The notes under the pieces are model-generated. The model was given only the letters and a program-made list of their open reading frames with translations, searched no databases and was not told where the DNA came from. A program made the position numbers and the translations under genes. From positions 1 through 64,000 of the IMG/VR virus record IMGVR_UViG_3300029711_000003: a stretch of 64,000 nucleotides of DNA; one strand, written 5' to 3'. Each line of letters begins with the position of its first letter. Within the stretch, counting starts at the first letter, position 1. The stretch comes from a virus. Of the stretch, positions 941-24,998 are shown in pieces.

Positions 941-2053
941 ATGTTTGAACATGCAGCATGGTACGACAAACTGCCCGATGAAAGTTTGTCGTTATTTGAG
1001 CCTCATTTGAGGTTGTTCTTTGAAACAATGTATGAGCGTCAGCTTATATGGAAACGGAGATTTATTGACAAAAAGGAAAGACCTTGGACAAGTAATAAGA
1101 TTTTCCAAGAGTCAAAGTTCACCAATGTTTATCGTGAGCTGGATAGGAACAGCCAATGGCAAATTAAGAACATTCTTCTTGATGATGAATTGTCGTTGAA
1201 AAATCTTGTTTGGAAGATGATGGTTTTTCGTTTCTTCAATAATCCTGAAACATTTACATTTGAGCCGAAAGGAAAGAGTATTCAACCCAGTCTTTTTGGA
1301 GCTCAAACAAAATCGGGATTGAAGCAGGCTCAATCAACTTCGGAGTTAATCAGTGCAAAGAAATGGCGCAACGGCATTCCTGATTATGATGAATATGATG
1401 AAGAAGAGTTTAGCCGTTTTATTGCTGGTGTTCGTAGTTCGGGACAAAATCCTTATACAACTGCTTATCTTATCAATTCTCAAGCAACACCTGGTATGCC
1501 GAGAGATTATTGTTACACAAGAGTGGTTATACCTACACTGCATAAGAACATGAATAAACTCATTGCTACGGTGATGTCCGCTAAGAAGCCAGAAGACATT
1601 ATCAGTTATCTTAAAACATTGCCTGCAGTGGCAGACTTTATTGCTCATGAGTTCTATCAGGACTTCACTTACATTCCGAGATATACGGATAGAAAATTTA
1701 TGAAGTTTGACCAAAATGACTTCACCAACGTGGGGCCAGGTGCCAGTATCGGCATACGTCTTATTTACCCAAACTTAAAAACAGTCAGAGAACAAAAACA
1801 AGCTATATATTGGTTGAGAGATTTAGCCGATGACTGGCTCAGTCGGATAAGTCTTGAAAGGGGTGAAGATATGCCGTATCTGTATTGGGATAAAGTAGGA
1901 GGACATTATTTGGTAGATGATGAATGCAACATAACGCTTCATCAAATAGAAATGTGGCTCTGCGAATTTCAGAAGTACTGGAAGATGATAATCGGTGAAG
2001 GCAAACAACGTTCTAAGTTTAGTCCAAGAAGTAAAACAATATTGAAAAGATGA
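941..2053 (+). CDS. putative DNA base hypermodification enzyme (alpha-glutamyl/putrescinyl thymine pyrophosphorylase-like)
   Basis: The N-terminal segment YERQLIWKRRF..KERPWTSNKIFQESKFTNVYRELDRNSQW matches my recollection of the conserved PWT..D.I....[KR]FTNVYRExDR signature of aGPT-Pplase family proteins. The stop overlaps the start of the downstream methyltransferase (ATGA). The family call is from memory and needs an HMM check. Confidence 0.5.
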   Translation: MFEHAAWYDKLPDESLSLFEPHLRLFFETMYERQLIWKRRFIDKKERPWTSNKIFQESKFTNVYRELDRNSQWQIKNILLDDELSLKNLVWKMMVFRFFNNPETFTFEPKGKSIQPSLFGAQTKSGLKQAQSTSELISAKKWRNGIPDYDEYDEEEFSRFIAGVRSSGQNPYTTAYLINSQATPGMPRDYCYTRVVIPTLHKNMNKLIATVMSAKKPEDIISYLKTLPAVADFIAHEFYQDFTYIPRYTDRKFMKFDQNDFTNVGPGASIGIRLIYPNLKTVREQKQAIYWLRDLADDWLSRISLERGEDMPYLYWDKVGGHYLVDDECNITLHQIEMWLCEFQKYWKMIIGEGKQRSKFSPRSKTILKR

Positions 2054-3078
2054 ACAAAGAATTAAAAGATTTTTTTGAGAAGAAAGGATTTGAGGTTGTA
2101 GAAAAGAAAACTACAACCCAAATTCTATTACAAAACCTTCTTGCTTTCAGTGTAAGAGAGAAGAAGGGTGGGTTGTTTGATATTTCAATCAATCTTGTAA
2201 AAGAAACTGAAGAAAAAGAGAAGTTGAGAAGCAGGTCTCAAGGATTTGAAGTCAATTTCAAAGGCACTCCCACATTGTTGGGTGTTTCTTTCGATGACTT
2301 TGAAAAGTTCTGCAAACAAAGCAAGGTCATTGCTCAGGTGAAACGTATTTCGGAGTTCCGAGAAGTACAGAGTGAATTTACTCTTGCAGTAGCAGAGAAA
2401 GACGGAAAGACTTTGAAGTGGCGTTCAAACCTTCCTACGGAGAAGCATATTGTTGATGCCGTGTTCCGTGGTAGCGAGTACACTCACCGTTCAGTTGGAT
2501 TGGGAGGTCTGAATCTAACCAAGAAAGACGTTGTATTGGATTTAGGCGGTAATATCGGAGCGTTCACGTGCGATATTTTTGATAAGGTCAAAAAGGTCAT
2601 TGTATATGAGCCTGAAGATGTGAACTATGAATTTCTATCTACTAATATAGAAGACAACGGAGCAAAGAACGTAATTGCCCACAAACAGGCAGTAGTTGGT
2701 AATGACGATAAAGTCCGTGACTTCTATCTTGGCAAGGCACCGTATTACTACTCATTTTTGGTTAAACATAATCGCAAGAGAGTTCCAGTTGAGTGTGTAA
2801 ATATCAACGATGTTATGAAGAAGTACAAGCCTACCAAAATGAAAGTTGATATTGAGGGTTCAGAATGGGAAGTGCTTATCAATTGTACCGACTTCGGAAG
2901 CGTTGACCAAATTATCTTTGAGTACAACTTTGATATGAACATGGACTTGAAAGAGGATTTCAAGCGTTTCAAGGCTTTGAAAAAACATCTCAAGAAACAT
3001 GGTTTTGACGTTCAGGAAATGGAGCGTGATATGAAGCAAAATTGGAATTTAGTATTTATGGTTCAAAGAACATTGTAG
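2050..3078 (+). CDS. FkbM-family SAM-dependent methyltransferase with ~150-aa N-terminal extension
   Basis: VLDLGGNIGAFTCD (SAM-binding G-loop), VIVYEPEDVNYEFL and KMKVDIEGSEWEVL match the FkbM-type pattern DxGAnxG...EPxP...L...KxDxEGxExxVL. Confidence 0.75.
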   Translation: MNKELKDFFEKKGFEVVEKKTTTQILLQNLLAFSVREKKGGLFDISINLVKETEEKEKLRSRSQGFEVNFKGTPTLLGVSFDDFEKFCKQSKVIAQVKRISEFREVQSEFTLAVAEKDGKTLKWRSNLPTEKHIVDAVFRGSEYTHRSVGLGGLNLTKKDVVLDLGGNIGAFTCDIFDKVKKVIVYEPEDVNYEFLSTNIEDNGAKNVIAHKQAVVGNDDKVRDFYLGKAPYYYSFLVKHNRKRVPVECVNINDVMKKYKPTKMKVDIEGSEWEVLINCTDFGSVDQIIFEYNFDMNMDLKEDFKRFKALKKHLKKHGFDVQEMERDMKQNWNLVFMVQRTL

Positions 3079-6439: not shown

Positions 6440-8323
6440 ATGGCAACAAAGAATTTAGGACAGGTGTCGGGTGTTCATATAGGTAGCACCCCACCGTCAA
6501 ATACGATATTGATTTGGTACGACAGCACACCGAGTCAGTTGAGGCATAAGGTATATGACCCAACGCTGAAACAGTGGGTTGTTCTTGACCAAAACATTAT
6601 TTCTGCAATCACATATTCCGAGCTTACCAATATGGCTAAAAATTCGGGATTGTCGGTTGGAGAGTATTTCCAAATTACAGACCGTAGTAATGCCCTTGCA
6701 TTAGCAATTACTTCTACGAAAGTACAGTATTGCGACGCTTTGGGTGACATTCTGATTGATGACCTTGGAACGAACATACAATATCATGTAACATCTTCCA
6801 ACTTACAGATTGACGATGTTGTCGGGGTATTCGATGAAACCAACCGAAAGCTGGTATTCCAGTTCAACGAGCAAACGCCCGATTTCACCGCTGACGACTA
6901 TGTTCTTGGTAAGGTTCAACGTAACAACATATGGAGCCTTGCCAAGTACAAACTTTCGTCTTTCTTGTCGAAAGTAACGGGCAATAGCATAACGTGGAAC
7001 GGTGGATTTTTCTTCAGCTTTTCGGACGCTCTGAAGAATGTTCTTGATAAGGCTGGTGGGGTAGTTAGCAAAACAACTTATGATAGGGATAAGGAACAAC
7101 TGACCACTTCTATCAACAACGTAGGAAAGGAAAATCAGAATATCATACAGAACGCTCATGATGAGCTGACTGAAGCTACCAAGCCTGATTCATTCTATGG
7201 CACCAAGCTACCATCTATTCCTACTAGTGGTGAAGCTACGGATATAGCAAAAGGAGATACGTTGTTGAGTATTGTATCAAAAATACAAAGATATATCAAT
7301 AAGTTCAAGTATGCTACTGGTATCCGTATTTCTCAAGATTTCACTGATAGGGTGAGTCCGCAATATGTTAATAACAACGACACCGTTGATTCAGCCATAA
7401 GAAAAATTCAATATTGGTTGAAAAATATGGGTAAGGGTGGAAAGCTATCTGAAGATTGGGAGCCGAAAGACTACACCACTACTGTTGAAGATGTAGCGGC
7501 AGGAGATACGTTTGATGATGCATTTGCTAAGGCAGTTGCTAAGTTGAGTCAGATTGGAGATATTACCAACGGTAGAATTCAATCGAAAGCTACTGTTAAT
7601 GGTAGCAAATATACAAGGTGTACCGATTTCAACTTGGCTAATGGTTCTTTGACATTTAATCGTGACGTTTCAGGAAGTGCTAATCAACAGACTGTTCAAC
7701 TGAATAGAAGTAGTGGTTTGTATATCAACAATGCTTCAGGGAAATCAGTTAGAATTTCTGGCGAAGGAGTAAGTGTCAATGCTAACACTAATCAAGGTTT
7801 TCAATTGCCAAACTATGAAGATAGTTGGGGATTGGGAATTTATTATGGAGCTGCTGCCGCTTTGTTTACAGGCGCAGGAGCCTCACTTGGCGGTTACACT
7901 TCGGTTAAGTGTGCTGCTGGTATTTCTGCTATTTGTAGCCGTGGAACATTAGGAAGTGGCGTTGATATTTTTGATGCGTATTTCTCACGTCTTAAAGCAG
8001 GCAGTATTTCTTTTGGTAGGGCAGGCATGCAAGACTCAGATTTGTATATCACAAATGACTGTTCTTTTGTAACATGTACTAATACAGAAGATAGAAATGT
8101 ATATTTGCCCACAACTCCGTTTGACGGTTTAATGGTCATCATCAATCAGGTTAATACTGCTAATGTAGCGGTTCAAGGCAATGGACATAAGATTATCGAT
8201 AACGAAGATGTTGACTATATCAATATTGGAGGAGCAAGAAGAATTGCCGTATTTCTTTATCATGCTAATCTTGCTTCACCTACTGGTTCGGGAGCTTGGT
8301 TGTTTACACGTTGGTCAAGATAA
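6440..8323 (+). CDS. putative fibre / virion-surface protein
   Basis: 627 aa, Gly/Ser/Asn/Thr-rich and beta-like in composition. Followed by a chaperone-like gene. No catalytic motif seen. Confidence 0.4.
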   Translation: MATKNLGQVSGVHIGSTPPSNTILIWYDSTPSQLRHKVYDPTLKQWVVLDQNIISAITYSELTNMAKNSGLSVGEYFQITDRSNALALAITSTKVQYCDALGDILIDDLGTNIQYHVTSSNLQIDDVVGVFDETNRKLVFQFNEQTPDFTADDYVLGKVQRNNIWSLAKYKLSSFLSKVTGNSITWNGGFFFSFSDALKNVLDKAGGVVSKTTYDRDKEQLTTSINNVGKENQNIIQNAHDELTEATKPDSFYGTKLPSIPTSGEATDIAKGDTLLSIVSKIQRYINKFKYATGIRISQDFTDRVSPQYVNNNDTVDSAIRKIQYWLKNMGKGGKLSEDWEPKDYTTTVEDVAAGDTFDDAFAKAVAKLSQIGDITNGRIQSKATVNGSKYTRCTDFNLANGSLTFNRDVSGSANQQTVQLNRSSGLYINNASGKSVRISGEGVSVNANTNQGFQLPNYEDSWGLGIYYGAAAALFTGAGASLGGYTSVKCAAGISAICSRGTLGSGVDIFDAYFSRLKAGSISFGRAGMQDSDLYITNDCSFVTCTNTEDRNVYLPTTPFDGLMVIINQVNTANVAVQGNGHKIIDNEDVDYINIGGARRIAVFLYHANLASPTGSGAWLFTRWSR

Positions 8324-8334
8324 AATTGTAACAT

Positions 8335-8925
8335 ATGAAAGCAAAAATAGTAAGCAAGTATTCAGTATCAGTCATTGACTACGATACGGAAGTCAATAAG
8401 ATTGAGACCATCTTCAATAGCGATATTGTAAAGTATGGAGTAAATGATGACATAATCAACGCCATTCTTGCTAAGAAAGACGATGAAAGGACTATCGAAG
8501 AACTTCAGGCGATTGTAAAACGCAAGGAATTGAACGATTGGAAAGACAGTCAGCTCAAGGAGCTGGATGGATATTTGGAATTTGTTCCTTCGGAGTTCAA
8601 TGGTTATTTGGGCGAATATGAAGCAGCAAAACCTTATTACGTTGAAGAGGATGAAAAGGTGGTTCAAAAATGGGAAATCGTTGAAAACGACAAAACAAAA
8701 ATTTTAGCCAAAATTGACGTATTAAAAGGTGAGCTTGAACAAACGGACTATAAGGTGATAAAATGCTATGAGGCTGCTCTGTCCAGTAGTAGTGAAATGC
8801 CTTATGACGTTAATACTTTGATTTCTGAACGTCAGGCAAAACGTGATGAAATAAATAGTTTGCAAGAGTTGATAACCGAAGAAGTGGTTGAAAAAACGCT
8901 CAAAATAAATCGTTGTTATGTGTAA
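8335..8925 (+). CDS. hypothetical protein (possible fibre assembly chaperone)
   Basis: 196 aa. The C-terminal pattern L..ELEQTDYKVIKCYE......ERQAKRDEIN resembles the W/D..K..E...R..R.EI pattern of phage fibre-assembly proteins. Weak. Confidence 0.3.
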   Translation: MKAKIVSKYSVSVIDYDTEVNKIETIFNSDIVKYGVNDDIINAILAKKDDERTIEELQAIVKRKELNDWKDSQLKELDGYLEFVPSEFNGYLGEYEAAKPYYVEEDEKVVQKWEIVENDKTKILAKIDVLKGELEQTDYKVIKCYEAALSSSSEMPYDVNTLISERQAKRDEINSLQELITEEVVEKTLKINRCYV

Positions 8926-10556: not shown

Positions 10557-11547
10557 ATGGGACAGTTAGATGATATTTTGAAACATCAAAACATGGTGTG
10601 CAATAACATCATGAAATCCTTTGGCGCAGAAACTTCGGAAGACAGTTTGGAAAAATCTTTTGAAGATGAAGTCAATCCGTTTGAAATGGAAGCATATAAA
10701 TCCGAGCTAACCAAAGCAGAACTTGATGAGTTTGAAAAAGCTAAACATCAAGACGGAGATATGCACCCCCAACGGTAAATGGGTTTGGCGTCAATCCGCC
10801 AACGGAGGCAAGGGTGACTGGCGTGTAGCGAAACCAGGTGGTAGCAAAGCTACTGCTGGGAGCGCAGCTACTGCAAATAATAAAACAAACGCTATGGCTA
10901 AGACTTCACCCAGTAAACTTTCCGATAAGGAGAAATTCGCTAATATGGATATCAAAGAAGCAAAAAAGAAACTTGTTGGTAAAAATTTAACATTTAAGAA
11001 CTATTGGAGTGATGGAAAGGGCGGAAGTGTAGATGCTACTGGTAAGATTACAAATGTACAGTTGTATGGAAGAAATAAACAACCTTTAGTTTCAGTAGAG
11101 TTTGAAAATGGAGATAGAGCTACAGTTTCTCTTAAACAAATTGATGAAGGTAAAGCAGTAGGATATGATTTGTCATTATCCGATAGTTCATCTGCTTCTA
11201 AACAAACTGGCGATAGCAAATCAGAAAAATCTTCATCTGACAAGAAGAAAGATGCAGAAATTCCAAATGCGGCTCAAGTAGGTATTAGCAATATTATCAA
11301 AAGGACTTTTGGTAAAAATCTGAGTTCACTTAAATTCAAGGGGAAGAAAGTAATTATACAGGTTGATGGTAAAACACATGGAAGTGGTTACAGTTCTTAT
11401 GTTAAATCTTATTACAAAGATGGTAAGATGACAAGCAGAGAGCTTGAAAATTCATATGATAAATCAAGCATGGATACCGTTGAAAAGAAGTTAGGAACTT
11501 TGATTAAATATGTAAATCAAATTGAATTGATAGAGAACTATGACTAA
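10557..11547 (+). CDS. hypothetical protein requiring a +1 frameshift at CCC_C (10767-10771); 0-frame product is 73 aa
   Basis: Frame 0 reads ...GDMHPQR* (10557..10778). Frame +1 from 10771 reads NGKWVWRQSANGGKGDWR... to 11547. The paralogue at 15996 reads GDMHPNGKWVW uninterrupted, with 4 C where this gene has 5. Confidence 0.55.
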
Positions 11548-11725
11548 GAAGGAACATAAGCATAGTCATTTCATTCCTTCTCCTTTTCCAACGGTTACAG
11601 AGTATGAAAATGCTTTCATAAAGTTTTGGAATAAGAATACAGCAGAGGCAGTTGCAGAAGTCTTAAAATATATGGCACGAGCAACTGCCTCTGCTATAAA
11701 AGAAAATAGGGAGGAAAAGAAATGA
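11540..11725 (+). CDS. hypothetical protein
   Basis: 61 aa. Overlaps both neighbours by a few nt. Confidence 0.4.
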   Translation: MTKKEHKHSHFIPSPFPTVTEYENAFIKFWNKNTAEAVAEVLKYMARATASAIKENREEKK

Positions 11726-13749
11726 TATTTACAGCATCACAAATAAGCGATATGCTGTCAATTCTCAAAAAGTATGAATTGATATTTATTGCTAATCAAC
11801 TTGGTACTGATTTTCTAACAGCTGCTGATAAAGCTATTCTATTAGCTGCTGGCATAGACGTTGACCAGTTTAAGAACGCTCAAGGCATTATAGAGCATGC
11901 TTTTCTTTTCGGTATATTAGCGGAAGCCATAGGGGATGCGAGGGCAAAGAAAATGAATTACAAGCAATTTCAGAAGTTCCTGAAGAGCAAGAATTTCATA
12001 CCGCTAACAGAAGAGGAAGAACTGGCATTGCAGAATGTTAAGCAAAGAGCGTACACCGATATAACAAATTTGAGCAACCGTATGGCTGGAGCTTTCCGAA
12101 ACGTAGTATTAAAAAACAATCAAGAGCAACTTCTACTGGCTCAAAAGATAGTACGTGATAAAGCTGTAACGGCAATTGAGCTGCGTCAAGGAGCTACGAA
12201 GTTAGCACAAGAACTTGCTGACGCTGCTCAGAGTTGGGACACAGATTGGTTGCGTGTTGCTTATTACATATTACATGAAGCATACAACACAGGTCGTTCT
12301 CAGAGTATTTTGAAGAATAATGGAGCGGATGCCGAAGTATATTTTGATGTATTTCCAAAGGCGTGTCATAAGTGTAAGGAATTGTATCTTGAAGACCCAG
12401 ATGATGAAAATAGCACACCAAAGATTTTCAAGCTCAAAGACCTTATAGCAAATGGTAATAATATCGGACGTAAACAAGCTGATTGGAAAGCTACGATTGG
12501 ACCAATACATCCATATTGTTTCAATAGTCCTTCAGTTAAGATTTATACATCAAAGGGAGTTAAGAATATTTCTGATATTAAAGTAGGGGATTTGGTATTG
12601 ACTCATAGGGGGAGATATAGAAAGGTAACTAATATAATGGTTAGAGGATATGATTGTGAAATAGAAAATATATATGACCTTTTCTACAGTTTTCCAGGTA
12701 TTGGATATGTCAAAGCAAAAAAGTGTAGAAAGGTAAGGGCAATAACTGGAAACCATCCTGTGCTAACTAAAAGAGGTTGGGTAACGGTTGAAAATTTAAC
12801 CATTGGAGATAAAATATATATACCAGCATTAGTTTGTTCTAAATGCGGTAAAGTTTATCCTATAAATGCTTATTATGATGATAAATATAGCCGTAAATAT
12901 GATAATGATTTATGTTATGATTGTTTAAGAACAAAAATAGCAGAAGAACAGTGGAAGGATGAAAATTTTCATAAGTATATGAGTATCAAAATTACTGAAC
13001 AGATGAAAAAAAGATATGAAAACATGTCTTATGAAGATAGATTGAGAATTAGTAGCAAAGCAAGAAAGGCTATTGCGAAAAAATATCCCAATGGACATCC
13101 ATGGATGAAGGAAGCTATAATAAAAGCAAACAAAACTAATGGTAAGAAAAAAACTTTCATAGAAAGGAAACTATTGTATTTATGTGAAAAATTAGGAGTG
13201 GAAACTGTAACTGGTATGTGTTTGAGGAATAAAGATGGCAAGTTCAGGAATAACGTCACTTGTTATTTTCCTGATATATTTATTCCAAAATTAGGAATTG
13301 TTCTTGAAGCCGATGGAATTCAATGGCATAAGGACAAGGAATATGACTCAAACAGAGATAAAGACATTAAACAATTTTTCGGATATGATACATTTAGATT
13401 TTCAGAAGAAGATATTGTAAATAATGGCGATAAGGTATTTGATGAATTAAATAGAATTTTTAATAATCATGAAGGTAATTATAGAATGATTGAAGTTACT
13501 CTTCATGCTATAAGGCGTAGAATGAGAAGTTCAAGACATTGCAATTTGTTATATAATTTTTCTGTTGAAGAAGATGAAAGTTATATAGCAGATGGCGTTG
13601 TTGTGCATAATTGCCGTTGTATATTGAATCATAAGCCAGAAGGATTTGCTTGGGATGAAAATCTAAGAGCGTTCACCAAGCCTATTAAGAAGGTTTCAAA
13701 TCACCCGAAATTAAAGAACGTGAAGCTGAACATCAAAGTTACTAAGTAA
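11722..13749 (+). CDS. minor head (morphogenesis) protein, MuF / SPP1 gp7 family, intein-containing precursor
   Basis: The extein carries ...FPKACHKCKELY...IGPIHPY + CRCILNH. This reconstitutes the C..C / HPxCRC signature that closes MuF-family domains. Position is downstream of portal. Confidence 0.8.
   Translation: MIFTASQISDMLSILKKYELIFIANQLGTDFLTAADKAILLAAGIDVDQFKNAQGIIEHAFLFGILAEAIGDARAKKMNYKQFQKFLKSKNFIPLTEEEELALQNVKQRAYTDITNLSNRMAGAFRNVVLKNNQEQLLLAQKIVRDKAVTAIELRQGATKLAQELADAAQSWDTDWLRVAYYILHEAYNTGRSQSILKNNGADAEVYFDVFPKACHKCKELYLEDPDDENSTPKIFKLKDLIANGNNIGRKQADWKATIGPIHPYCFNSPSVKIYTSKGVKNISDIKVGDLVLTHRGRYRKVTNIMVRGYDCEIENIYDLFYSFPGIGYVKAKKCRKVRAITGNHPVLTKRGWVTVENLTIGDKIYIPALVCSKCGKVYPINAYYDDKYSRKYDNDLCYDCLRTKIAEEQWKDENFHKYMSIKITEQMKKRYENMSYEDRLRISSKARKAIAKKYPNGHPWMKEAIIKANKTNGKKKTFIERKLLYLCEKLGVETVTGMCLRNKDGKFRNNVTCYFPDIFIPKLGIVLEADGIQWHKDKEYDSNRDKDIKQFFGYDTFRFSEEDIVNNGDKVFDELNRIFNNHEGNYRMIEVTLHAIRRRMRSSRHCNLLYNFSVEEDESYIADGVVVHNCRCILNHKPEGFAWDENLRAFTKPIKKVSNHPKLKNVKLNIKVTK
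12517..13611 (+). mobile_element. intein (365 aa, residues 266-630) with nested Vsr/DUF559-like endonuclease
   Basis: Cys1 (CFNSPSVKIY), block B TxxH (ITGNHPVL), terminal VVVHN followed by the +1 Cys. The interior has a zinc ribbon (CSKCGK...CYDC) and FPDIFIPKLGIVLEADGIQWHKDKEYDSNRDKDIKQFFGYDTFRF. The segment is visibly AT-richer than the exteins. Confidence 0.8.
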
Positions 13750-13760
13750 AAAGAATTGTA

Positions 13761-14438
13761 ATGAAAACTGAAAAATGTTTAATTGTACAGCCTCATTCCG
13801 ATGACGCCTTGTTTTGTTGTTCTCATATACTATTTCAGCCTCAATACGAAGTTCAAGTGCTGACCGTAGAGAATGACCCAAAGCGTATTGCGGAAGATGA
13901 GAAATTGTATGATTTCCTCAATATTCCTTTCTTTCACCTTACAGCCGATTTTCACGATGAGAGCTATTATGGTTTCAATAAGGAATACAAAGAAGTAACT
14001 GTGGAAGCAACGTATAAATATCTACGTGGGTACTTCGGTAGCGATACGATGAATGAAATTGAGGAAATGATTGTAAGTTGGTTAAGGAAGTTTTTGAAAA
14101 ATAATAAGGGGTACAAAGTGATTGCTCCTTGGGGTGTAGGACATCCATTCCATTTGTTTGTTCGTGAAACTATTCAGAGCGCAATAAGCTATATGGAGTA
14201 TTATCGTGAATTTCCGCATTCGTATAAAAGACGTTCTCAAACGCAAGTTAATAAACAATTGGAAGAATATACGTTGAAACGGTCAGTACCAGTTGATGAG
14301 TTTCACGAAGTGAAGTGGAAACTTGCTTCAAAGTTTTACAGGTCGCAGTCGGGATTGCAGTTTTACGAGCAAAACTATATAAAGAAAATGTTGCCCGAAG
14401 AAATTTATATAAGAAACCAAGATGAATTGCCGTTTTGA
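13761..14438 (+). CDS. PIG-L / LmbE-family N-acetylglucosaminyl deacetylase-like protein
   Basis: N-terminal LIVQPHSDDALF matches the (A/P)HPDDE zinc-ligand motif. The later GVGHPFHLFV matches the H-x-x-H region of the family. Confidence 0.6.
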   Translation: MKTEKCLIVQPHSDDALFCCSHILFQPQYEVQVLTVENDPKRIAEDEKLYDFLNIPFFHLTADFHDESYYGFNKEYKEVTVEATYKYLRGYFGSDTMNEIEEMIVSWLRKFLKNNKGYKVIAPWGVGHPFHLFVRETIQSAISYMEYYREFPHSYKRRSQTQVNKQLEEYTLKRSVPVDEFHEVKWKLASKFYRSQSGLQFYEQNYIKKMLPEEIYIRNQDELPF

Positions 14439-14441
14439 TTT

Positions 14442-15893
14442 ATGAAGATATTCATTGCAGATTTTCAGATAGCAAAATATGGTGGCATTGTCGAGTACGT
14501 TGCCAGCATGCTTAAAGCATTCCGAGATTTAGGACATGAAGTGGATGTAGCTCAAATGACACCTGCATCTACTACTCAGAGTGCTTATAACAAGAAAGTA
14601 AAAGAGTTTGAGAGCGGAGAACATCAACAAAAGATAAAGTTCCATTCTCAGGCTGGAGGTTATGAGAAAGATGAGGTAACAGGTTATTGGCGCAATAACT
14701 ATTATGGCTATTTCTTGCCTCCAAGTAACCGTATCGGAGTATATGAAAAGAACGCTGTGGAGAGGTGGAAAGAATTGGTAAGGGATGCTGATATCATTCT
14801 TTGGAATTTCATGCCAACTAAAAGTTCCGCTTGGAATAAGAAAGGCGTTGAATTTGACTTTTGGTGGAAGTTCTTTGATTTACCTTCTTCTATTAAGCAA
14901 GTATTTTTATGCCATGATGCTTATTTCAACGTCAGAGCAAGTAATATATCTGCTCTGAAAGATAAGATATTGTTTATAGCTTGCGCTCACCTTGCAGCGT
15001 ATCAGTGTTGTTCCGAAATAGGGATACCAAGAACGTTGTTATTGAATCCACGTTATTTGCCCGATGGGGCACGTATGCCAATAAGACCCATGCAAAAGAG
15101 AACGGATGACTTTTTTGCTGCACATATGTTTAAGTCTATGAAACATATGGAAGAGTTGATTGCCGCTGTTCCGTATATTCAAAAGGGGAGTGAAGAAAGA
15201 TATTCGGTTAAGATTGCTGGAACTGGCATCGAATATAATTACATGACCAGTGAGACAAAGACAAAGAGTAATTACATGTGCACTCTGAAGCGTGACCCTA
15301 ACTTGCCTAAGAAGATGGATGGCAAAATTTCTCTTTGGGATAGAGCCGTTAAGTTTGGTATGGAGTATATGGGTCAGATGTCGGGCGGTGATGTCATTAA
15401 GACTTTGAAAAATACTAAGTTTGCTATTGACCCATCTTGGGCTGAACATTATGCCAATTATTGTCGCACTCACATAAACGGTTTTATTATCGAAGCTATG
15501 CTGAGCGGTGCTTATCCAGTTTTGCGTGATTATAGGGGATTGGTTAAGAACGGAGATAAGGAAATATATGACCCATTGTTTGAAAACGTCAGAGCAATCA
15601 TTATTCCATGGAATGCTACTCCGAAAGAATTTGCTGAATCATTGAAGAAAGCTATGCAGATGTCACCTGCTAAATTTCTCCGAGATACAAAGGCTAATTT
15701 TGAGCTTGTTTATGAATTATTCAACGCTAAGAAGAATGCTGAAGAAATAGTAAGACTTTGCCGTGGTGGTAAAAAGTTAATCAAAAAAGAGCTTGAAAAA
15801 GGCAAAGATTCAGAAAATGTTAAGAAAATAACAAAAGACATTATGGAGGACTTCTATCATATAGAGCTTCCAATTGAGTGGGAAACAGAATAA
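14442..15893 (+). CDS. GT-B fold glycosyltransferase (GT4-like)
   Basis: The N-terminus MKIF...AKYGGIVEYVASMLKAFRDLGHEVDV is the typical GT4 start. The C-terminal NGFIIEAMLSGAYPVL matches the E-x7-E / EAMA.G.PV region. Confidence 0.65.
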   Translation: MKIFIADFQIAKYGGIVEYVASMLKAFRDLGHEVDVAQMTPASTTQSAYNKKVKEFESGEHQQKIKFHSQAGGYEKDEVTGYWRNNYYGYFLPPSNRIGVYEKNAVERWKELVRDADIILWNFMPTKSSAWNKKGVEFDFWWKFFDLPSSIKQVFLCHDAYFNVRASNISALKDKILFIACAHLAAYQCCSEIGIPRTLLLNPRYLPDGARMPIRPMQKRTDDFFAAHMFKSMKHMEELIAAVPYIQKGSEERYSVKIAGTGIEYNYMTSETKTKSNYMCTLKRDPNLPKKMDGKISLWDRAVKFGMEYMGQMSGGDVIKTLKNTKFAIDPSWAEHYANYCRTHINGFIIEAMLSGAYPVLRDYRGLVKNGDKEIYDPLFENVRAIIIPWNATPKEFAESLKKAMQMSPAKFLRDTKANFELVYELFNAKKNAEEIVRLCRGGKKLIKKELEKGKDSENVKKITKDIMEDFYHIELPIEWETE

Positions 15894-23501: not shown

Positions 23502-24998
23502 ATGAACGAAAGATTGACAATCAACTTGGCTGATTATGGCTTTGCCTCTCAGCAAGATGGTTTCCGCGCTGGAATGGAAAGTTCTGAAACCGTTGACCAG
23601 CTTAACAAAGCGTTGGCTGCGGAACAGATTACTGGCCGTGAAACCACAGACCTGACTACTGCGTCGGGTGCTCCGTTGAAAGTTGAGTCTTTGGAGAAAA
23701 CTCTGAAGCACCTTACTTTCCGTGAGCAAGACATTCGGTTGTGGAAGGATATTCCGAAGAAACCTGCCTACAACACCGTTGAAGAGTACAACCAGCAAGT
23801 AAGCTACGGTGCACACCGTGGAGGTTGGAATAGAGAAGGTGAGCTGCCTGAAGAGGAAGACAGCGTATTTGTACGCAGGGCTCAGTTGGTGAAATACCTT
23901 GGTGTAACCAAGAGTGTAACTCACCAGATGACCCTTGTAAATACGATGATTGGTTCTGTGATGGAGCGCACTATCAAGGACGGTACGTTGTGGATTTTGC
24001 GTGCTCTGAACGAAGGCTTGTACTTCGGTGATGAGAAGATTGTTCCTGAACAGTTCAACGGTTTCATTGCTCAGCAGAAGGGTTCTGACTCTTGGGCATC
24101 TTACGCTGAATATATGGACAGTGAGCATGTTATTGATTTGCGTGGCTCTGCTTTGACTGAGGACGCTATCGAAACTGCTGCAAACACTATCGTAGAAAAC
24201 TACGGTTTAGGTACTCAGATTTATGGACCACCCGCAGTTCTTTCCAACTTTGTTAAGAACTTCTATGGCAATAAGTTCGTTGTGCCCAATACTCCGAGCT
24301 TGTCTGACGGTATTATGGGTCAGCGTGTTCAGGCATTTGACTCTCAGTTCGGTCGTATCGGTTTGAATCACGATGTGTTCTTCAAGAAGCTGCCGTCAAA
24401 GACTGCATCTTCAGCTGCCACTTCTCAAAAAGCTCCGACAAAACCGACTTGGGACGGTTCAACGCCTGCTACGGTTCAATCTACTATTGCTGGAAGCAAG
24501 TGGGGTAGCACGGATGCTGGTAACGTGTACTACGCTGTAACGGCAATCAACCGTTTCGGTGAGTCTGATTTGGCTGTTTACGATACTGCCGTAGCTGCAA
24601 CTGCTGGTTCTGCCATTGACCTCAAGTTCGCTGATGGAGGCGGTGTTAACAAAGCAACAGCCTATCGCATTTACCGTACTAAGGTTGGTGGAACTGCAGC
24701 TGGCCCATTCTATCCGTTGTTTGAGGTATCGGTTGATGACCTGACCCGTGGTTATGACGGTGGTTCTCCTGGAATTATCCGTGATATGAATCGGTACTTG
24801 CCCGATACTGACCAGAGCATTCTGTTCCAGTTCGACAACGAAGTTATTGAGTTCTCTCAGTTGGCTCCGTTGATGAAGATGGATTTGGCTGTTCTTTCTC
24901 CTGCTTTCCGTTTCATGATTTTGCTGTACGGTACTCCGTTCTTGTATGCGCCGAAGAAGATGGTACGCTTCATCAATATCGGAAAGACAATTCAGTAA
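23502..24998 (+). CDS. major capsid protein
   Basis: 498 aa. Immediately follows protease/scaffold and is followed by a strong terminator. The call is by synteny and size. Confidence 0.7.
   Translation: MNERLTINLADYGFASQQDGFRAGMESSETVDQLNKALAAEQITGRETTDLTTASGAPLKVESLEKTLKHLTFREQDIRLWKDIPKKPAYNTVEEYNQQVSYGAHRGGWNREGELPEEEDSVFVRRAQLVKYLGVTKSVTHQMTLVNTMIGSVMERTIKDGTLWILRALNEGLYFGDEKIVPEQFNGFIAQQKGSDSWASYAEYMDSEHVIDLRGSALTEDAIETAANTIVENYGLGTQIYGPPAVLSNFVKNFYGNKFVVPNTPSLSDGIMGQRVQAFDSQFGRIGLNHDVFFKKLPSKTASSAATSQKAPTKPTWDGSTPATVQSTIAGSKWGSTDAGNVYYAVTAINRFGESDLAVYDTAVAATAGSAIDLKFADGGGVNKATAYRIYRTKVGGTAAGPFYPLFEVSVDDLTRGYDGGSPGIIRDMNRYLPDTDQSILFQFDNEVIEFSQLAPLMKMDLAVLSPAFRFMILLYGTPFLYAPKKMVRFINIGKTIQ

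Follow-up and report, generated by a model that had tools for sequence, protein, structure and literature searches.

A MuF-like phage head protein gene split by a probably mobile intein with an in-frame Vsr-like nuclease

Introduction

The nucleases of inteins are usually said to be of the LAGLIDADG type or, rarely, of the HNH type. Vsr-like homing endonucleases have been described as free-standing genes lying between the halves of split inteins and in group I introns (Dassa 2009, PMC2677866). The EDxHD family has been characterised, the key residues of I-Bth0305I being D196, H213 and D222, which correspond to D51, H69 and D97 of Vsr (Taylor 2011, PMC3239194). In 2004, a Mu F protein encoded by a prophage of Methylococcus capsulatus was reported to have an intein that lacks an endonuclease (PMC517821), and minor capsid proteins (IPR006528) of actinophages have been listed as intein hosts (bioRxiv 10.1101/2025.01.02.630785); the latter work also describes antisense Vsr-like nucleases inside full inteins and states that earlier reports had linked such nucleases to split inteins only. 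The subject here is positions 1 to 64,000 of the IMG/VR virus record IMGVR_UViG_3300029711_000003 (the window, i.e. the whole stretch of 64,000 nucleotides analysed), in which a gene for a MuF-like head-morphogenesis protein (11722..13749) is split by an intein (12517..13611) that includes a Vsr-like nuclease in the same reading frame.

The element is very probably a mobile class 1 intein in a divergent gene of the MuF/SPP1-gp7 type, which splices to restore IHPY-CRC and uses its in-frame Vsr-like nuclease for homing. It shares the logic of canonical inteins with an in-frame LAGLIDADG nuclease, such as PI-SceI, or with an HNH nuclease, namely Hint lobes split by a nuclease that follows block B, a life cycle based on homing, and a decay that leads to mini-inteins. 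However, instead of a LAGLIDADG or beta-beta-alpha-Me nuclease it has a Vsr-like nuclease derived from the PD-(D/E)xK fold, together with an extra zinc-ribbon/helical arm. The M. capsulatus and actinophage MuF inteins have the same host protein family but no in-frame nuclease, and for the actinophage minor capsid inteins non-canonical nucleases, e.g. antisense LAGLIDADG, are reported rather than in-frame LAGLIDADG. A preliminary description of the window, made from the sequence alone, had considered the nuclease class unusual for an intein. This was true in part only, as Vsr-like nucleases had already been linked to split and antisense inteins, but the in-frame fusion is apparently undescribed. 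The open-access literature yielded no account of a contiguous intein with a Vsr-like nuclease in frame, an absence that is provisional because only open-access papers were covered.

Precursor gene and position of the insert

The precursor open reading frame (ORF) at 11722..13749, taken from the ORF listing, encodes 675 amino acids (aa) and, like all intein and extein features given below, lies on the plus strand. Its N-extein (11722..12516, 265 aa) ends in ...KATIGPIHPY and includes KACHKCKELY, with the CxxC that forms the upstream part of the MuF-type motif. The C-extein (13612..13749, 45 aa plus stop) begins with the +1 Cys (13612-13614), which is the first Cys of CRC. Between them, the intein (12517..13611; ORF residues 266-630; Cys1 ... 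His364-Asn365) occupies 1095 bp or 365 codons in frame, with no stop or frameshift over its length according to the ORF listing. The junctions read KATIGPIHPY/CFNSPS on the N side and GVVVHN/CRCILNHK on the C side, a slash marking the boundary, and the insertion point directly follows the x residue of HPxCRC and precedes its first Cys. Excision of the 365 codons in silico gives a 310-aa protein with IHPYCRC.

A search with the spliced extein returned 275 homologues, and among the best 120 almost all lack an interruption and are 308-316 aa long; more than 100 intein-free homologues of this size were found. The closest of them (P0097) is a 310-aa protein, 95% identical, encoded on a 102.6-kb contig (L001). 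The spliced gene and the L001 allele have 92.8% nucleotide identity, and at the junction 58/60 bases are identical, the sole length difference being the 1095-bp insert. An exact difference of 1095 bases combined with this flanking identity indicates that the insertion is not due to chance. The empty L001 allele around the site reads AAAGCTACGATTGGACCAATACATCCATAT/TGCCGTTGTATATTGAATCATAAGCCAG.

The GC content of the insert is 29.9%, as compared with 38.9% in the N-extein and 37.8% on average over the window, and the GC content at third codon positions is 20.8% in the insert and 32.5% in the N-extein. By GC content the insert falls in the lowest 1.35% of 1095-nt stretches of the window. No second intein of this type was found elsewhere in the window using hidden Markov models (HMMs) of the family.

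Hint domain and intein landmarks

With the insert alone as query, Pfam Intein_splicing (PF14890) scored 36.6 bits (gathering score 35.8) and Hint_2 (PF13403) 28.6 bits (gathering score 28.4), whereas no Pfam match to LAGLIDADG or HNH families was obtained. The NCBIfam model for the C-terminal region of inteins, TIGR01443, scored 29.9 bits against a cut-off of 15.6. The N-terminal Hint lobe covers intein aa 1-105 (12517..12831), with Cys1 at 12517-12519 and block B, T77-G-N-H80, at 12745-12756, and the C-terminal lobe, defined by TIGR01443, covers aa 319-365 (13471..13611) with blocks F and G, LLYNFSVEEDESYIADGVVVHN.

In an alignment of the window intein with 20 full-length relatives (A1, 21 inteins), C1 (ORF Cys266), H80, H364 and N365 are invariant, and T77 of the block B sequence ITGNHP is present in at least 90%. 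In the C-terminal lobe, little or no variation is seen at N347, E351-E354, S355, H364 and N365. The +1 Cys (ORF C631) is invariant across 63 related precursors, and HN/C is invariant both in A1 and in a second alignment, A2. An AlphaFold2 model built on A1 had a mean predicted local distance difference test score of 82.9 and a predicted template modelling score of 0.71; its Hint part was matched by Foldseek with probability 1.0 to the gp41-1, DnaB, RecA and DnaX mini-inteins, with 6QAZ, 6FRG and 2IN8 among the matches. The insert therefore combines the features of a class 1 intein, i.e. Cys1, TxxH, a terminal HN followed by a +1 Cys, the Hint fold, and absence from orthologues at a conserved site.

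Host protein

The host is regarded as a diverged protein of the MuF superfamily on the basis of a profile-profile match and its position in the head module. Comparison of the extein family with spliced PF04233-positive proteins using hhalign gave a probability of 96.95% (E 1.3e-10), with RVAYYILHEAYNTGR, CHKC and HPYCRC paired with ARTE, CxxC and HPnCRC of the Phage_Mu_F-positive proteins. A portal gene (PF04860, 4509-6185) lies upstream of it and a gene for an SU10-type major capsid protein (23502-24998) downstream, and the order portal, MuF and capsid is repeated in L001 and in a second related contig, L003. The intein appears to split a Cys/His metal-binding knuckle (CxxC ... HPxCxC).

The central proposal of the preliminary description, that an intein splits the HPxCRC motif of a MuF/gp7-like protein, is borne out by the Pfam and NCBIfam intein models, the intein-free alignments and the profile-profile match to MuF. 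The deletion of 12517..13611 was likewise correctly expected to recreate IHPYCRC, in a product as long as the intein-free homologues. The landmarks it had named (Cys1, TxxH, HN and +1 Cys) are present and are conserved in A1, the +1 Cys also in the 63 precursors, and the alignment to intein-free homologues that it had suggested as a check runs straight across the site and confirms the insertion point.

Nested zinc ribbon, helical arm and nuclease

Between the two Hint lobes lie three further parts. A four-cysteine zinc ribbon formed by C107, C110, C133 and C136 (12835..12924) is followed by a Lys/Arg-rich region of three helices (aa 134-189, 12916..13083), predicted by AlphaFold2 at 134-147, 149-168 and 172-189, and both are presumed to bind DNA. 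The four cysteines are invariant in A1, and relatives gave weak treble-clef and zf-FCS matches. NUMOD3-like 'NPM...' repeats were seen by eye in some relatives.

The third part, aa 214-318 (13156..13470), is a nuclease domain of the Vsr-like/DUF559/EDxHD type, assigned from matches to DUF559, 3HRL and 3R3P. Pfam DUF559 (PF04480) matched intein residues 242-313 with 36.4 bits (gathering score 20.6), and no match to PF03852 (Vsr) was obtained with the window sequence. The A1 profile matched the DUF559 structure 3HRL with E 6.4e-12, the catalytic domain of I-Bth0305I (3R3P) with E 5.1e-11, and Vsr itself (1CW0) marginally, with E 0.19. When the nuclease part of the AlphaFold2 model was compared with 3R3P using Foldseek, a target TM-score of 0.82 and a root mean square deviation of 2.5 Å were obtained. 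The preliminary assignments to a Vsr/DUF559-type nuclease rather than to LAGLIDADG or HNH, and of a CxxC...CxxC ribbon with a basic helical stretch, both stand, the former on the DUF559 score, the 3R3P match and the lack of LAGLIDADG or HNH matches, and the latter on the invariant cysteines and the modelled helices.

The nuclease segment follows the pattern FPDIF...LEADGIQWH...D..R...RF, and the layout D...ExDG..WH...D..R...RF is common to it and to DUF559 (3HRL) and Vsr (PF03852; 1CW0). The DUF559 and Vsr proteins are stand-alone and cellular, and act as repair nickases or have an unknown role, whereas the window nuclease is nested in an intein. The candidate catalytic residues are E216 in the N-terminal helix, D253 (13273-13275), E264 (13306-13308) within the ExDG strand, D266, H271 (13327-13329) and D277 (13345-13347). 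In the HMM alignment, D196, H213 and D222 of I-Bth0305I correspond to D253, H271 and D277, respectively. E216, D253, E264 and G267 are invariant in A1, and the window intein keeps every one of the six candidate positions as well as the four zinc ligands.

Close known counterparts of the module are I-Bth0305I and the EDxHD family, with which it shares the catalytic fold, the active-site positions (D253, E264, H271, D277 and the N-terminal Glu) and the order of a DNA-binding region followed by the nuclease, and which are likewise phage-borne and tied to self-splicing elements. It differs in the binding part, which is a four-Cys zinc ribbon with helices here and NUMOD2/helix-turn-helix (HTH) repeats in EDxHD. 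The known EDxHD members are separate ORFs that either stand free or lie in group I introns or between the halves of split inteins, whereas the window module is in frame within a contiguous intein. A nuclease coded antisense, as in the actinophage inteins, was also considered and rejected, since the minus-strand ORFs inside the insert are only 68 and 76 aa long and of low complexity, and the nuclease domain was found by Pfam in the sense frame.

Empty, full and decayed alleles

In addition to the empty allele in L001, a shortened one was found in L003, where the extein of the MuF protein P0001 is 98% identical to that of the window and is interrupted at the same codon by an intein of 228 aa. 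As judged by blastn of the window against L003, the segment absent from this homologous intein is 12985..13394, so that the helical arm lacks its end and the nuclease its catalytic half. Elsewhere in the clade, inteins of 147-257 aa are found at residue 266, and mini-inteins of 147-152 aa are present at the same codon in P0011, P0020 and P0021. Empty, full and decayed alleles thus occur side by side in closely related phages, as a homing cycle would be expected to produce.

The preliminary description had taken the AT-richness of the insert as a sign of recent invasion. While the insert is indeed AT-richer than its flanks, the decayed copy in L003 has a GC content of 30.4%, and AT-richness therefore marks the intein lineage and not its date of arrival. 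The presence/absence polymorphism in near-identical phages is better evidence of mobility.

Distribution of the architecture

Searches with the intein revealed dozens of MuF proteins from metagenomes that have an intein at the same HPx/C...HN/CRC site, as well as related inteins of ~350 aa at ITNxVK/C...HN/CRPPxNR of family-4 uracil-DNA glycosylases (UDGs). The view that the MuF host site is unusual is not upheld, given these proteins, the reports of 2004 and 2025, and an intein at the same xCRC point in Gordonia phage Lennon. The Hint domain of the Lennon intein (...HEVIN/C...CHN/CRC) is related to that of the window (HintN E 7e-24), but no in-frame nuclease was detected in Lennon by the nuclease-module profile. 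The MuF-like minor capsid inteins of Gordonia phages were the nearest matches among GenBank phages. A tblastn search of the intein against 50,697 GenBank phage records gave no match covering at least 80% of it, and no near-identical DNA was found in GenBank phages by megablast.

A word-indexed search with the nuclease module alone returned only one fragment, and an exhaustive HMMER search was needed. When the module (intein residues 103-320) was searched in this way against 1.84 billion cluster representatives, 253 matches were obtained at E <= 1e-3. The best 150 of these include 91 proteins with a complete in-frame HintN-(zinc ribbon)-nuclease-HintC arrangement, 13 fragments thereof and 44 with the nuclease only. 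Hence, the in-frame fusion is present in at least 91 metagenomic clusters, mostly in MuF proteins. Among 63 complete examples scanned against Pfam, DUF559 was found in 62 (E < 1e-3), Intein_splicing in 60, Phage_Mu_F in 36 and Vsr in 15. The best relative of the nuclease module, P0217, is 66% identical and keeps the module end to end, and none of the proteins found exceeds 70% identity over the whole intein. The same order of zinc ribbon, helices and nuclease makes up a free-standing relative, P0265, whose complete ORF of 247 aa has no Hint sequences on either side.

Relatives are also encoded at 262 loci of species-representative genomes, and the full in-frame architecture was seen in 16 of the best 80. 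Thirteen of the 16 are UDG genes of Nitrospira, Rokubacteria, Anaerolineae and others; the UDG loci with a Hint-zinc ribbon-nuclease intein are L007-L016 and L018-L020, all in metagenome-assembled genomes. The UDG-hosted members of A1 have lost D266 and H271, reading EVRG... instead with the His replaced, and on account of this altered active site they are probably dead nucleases kept inside splicing-competent inteins.

Many of the 63 scanned examples have C-terminal cargo domains. Some MuF relatives of the clade (extein relatives P0217, P0121, P0135 and P0137) have a C-terminal InPase (PF18823) domain, and remoter intein-bearing MuF proteins (alignment A2) have ADP-ribosyltransferase, Zeta-toxin, kinase, topoisomerase IB or metallopeptidase domains; all of these look like MuF-cargo fusions. 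Two metagenomic proteins, P0240 and P0303, each have two separate Hint plus Vsr-like inteins.

Genomic context

At 941..2053 and 2050..3078 the window encodes the helical domain of a 5-hydroxymethyldeoxyuridine (5-hmdU) DNA kinase (PF18723, E 1.6e-47) adjoining an FkbM-type methyltransferase, which suggests that the phage hypermodifies thymidine.

The MuF gene is directly followed by a 225-aa ORF with no family match (13761..14438) and by a second ORF, of 483 aa (14442..15893), that matched glycosyltransferase-4 weakly. Both are unusual neighbours in a head module and are kept in L001 and L003. The homologues of these two ORFs, adjacent in the window, are separated in L001 by an extra gene (L001:7601-8497) for a 298-aa NUMOD3-containing protein, probably a free-standing homing endonuclease, and thus different mobile elements occupy different members of the phage clade. 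By blastn, two stretches of the window, 10859..11540 and 7320..8917, are without a counterpart in L001 and L003, although identity is 88-98% elsewhere; both look like variable cassettes inside the head module. The first is located in a Ser/Lys-rich ORF of 274 aa (10723..11547) just upstream of the MuF gene.

Mechanism and alternative explanations

Splicing of the precursor would start with an N-S acyl shift at Cys1, after which the +1 Cys would take the N-extein by trans-thioesterification and Asn365 would cyclise with the assistance of His364. The predicted products are the 310-aa MuF protein with IHPYCRC and a free 365-aa intein. In a mixed infection, the nuclease module would cut the intein-less allele near CCATAT/TGCCGT, and the break would be repaired by recombination with the intein-bearing genome, whereby the element would be copied into the cut allele.

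Several observations weigh against a working homing intein in a MuF gene. Splicing, DNA cleavage and present-day mobility are deduced from sequences and models, as is the DNA-binding role assigned to the zinc ribbon and helices, and neither a NUMOD nor an HTH motif was detected in the intein, no Pfam NUMOD family being matched at E <= 1. The Phage_Mu_F profile (PF04233) matched the spliced extein below threshold (12.8 bits, gathering score 29.6, E 0.21), over profile positions 3-111 of 112 and ending at HPYCRC. Block F (13555..13578, aa 347-354), YNFSVEEDESY, is non-canonical, with N347 and E354/S355 in place of the Asp and His of many class 1 inteins; this variant is kept family-wide, including in phage Lennon (WNFAVDEDESY). 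I-Bth0305I is dimeric and recognises a pseudo-palindromic site, whereas in the window target no pseudo-palindrome was found: the candidate arms CAATACA...TGTATATTG were no better than background, the best symmetry score being 8/18 with P(background >= observed) = 0.62, and the enzyme may therefore not act like dimeric I-Bth0305I. Given the 5-hmdU DNA kinase, the real nuclease substrate may also be hypermodified DNA of uncertain susceptibility.

The most serious alternative, although an unlikely one, is that the intein still splices while its nuclease is no longer a working homing enzyme, the element being a vertically inherited relic on the way to a mini-intein. Close relatives with deleted or minimal inteins at the same site and the UDG-hosted members without D266 and H271 are what such a course would leave behind, and with no relative above 70% identity over the whole intein a recent spread of this exact copy is undocumented. 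However, the nuclease of the window shows none of this decay, with all catalytic positions and four zinc ligands intact in 365 codons free of frameshifts and stops, and the module is maintained end to end in P0217 at 66% identity. Moreover, public data also contain an empty, susceptible allele whose target sequence is identical. A nuclease co-opted for the benefit of the phage, for marker exclusion of competing phage or host DNA or for discrimination between unmodified and hypermodified DNA, is improbable. Such a role would fit a phage that codes for a 5-hmdU DNA kinase, and the Vsr fold also occurs in the modification-dependent enzymes PvuRts1I and AbaSI, to which weaker profile and fold matches were obtained here. 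Yet the best matches are to DUF559 and I-Bth0305I and not to PvuRts1I, a modification-reading domain is absent, and the nuclease lies inside an intein with the presence/absence distribution typical of homing.

It is hardly credible that the Hint module is instead an autoproteolytic or pre-toxin HINT that merely cleaves off the C-terminal 45 residues. A weak PT-HINT match (18.7 bits, gathering score 27.7) and the many MuF proteins with C-terminal cargo or toxin domains would fit that role. The terminal His-Asn and +1 Cys are, however, invariant, the intein-specific models score above their thresholds, and excision gives a protein in which the conserved motif is restored and the length is exactly that of more than 100 uninterrupted homologues.

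Implications

The window element is an intact member of a widespread and apparently unnamed class of inteins. Annotators should expect Hint together with DUF559 in MuF and family-4 UDG genes, and labelling such genes as fusions with a 'very-short-patch-repair endonuclease' should be avoided. The element also offers a compact, monomer-encoded enzyme, predicted to be a homing endonuclease of the Vsr fold, with a defined natural target, CCATAT/TGCCGT, in a conserved MuF motif.

In the 'fractured gene' model, a free-standing endonuclease gene invades an intein and later fuses with it. A broader reading, offered tentatively and with somewhat less than even confidence, is that the window intein is an intact representative of a large and apparently undescribed class in which an EDxHD/Vsr-like endonuclease with its zinc-ribbon/helical arm has been fused in frame into a contiguous Hint domain, the end state of that model. 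The class would be specialised on the HPx/CRC site of MuF and the VK/CRPP site of family-4 UDG, and three stages of its homing cycle would be represented in one clade of ~100-kb phages, probably with hypermodified thymidine. The in-frame fusion may then be the missing fused stage on the proposed route from a free-standing endonuclease gene to an intein domain, as is supported by the free-standing relatives of the module and the decayed copies in sister phages.

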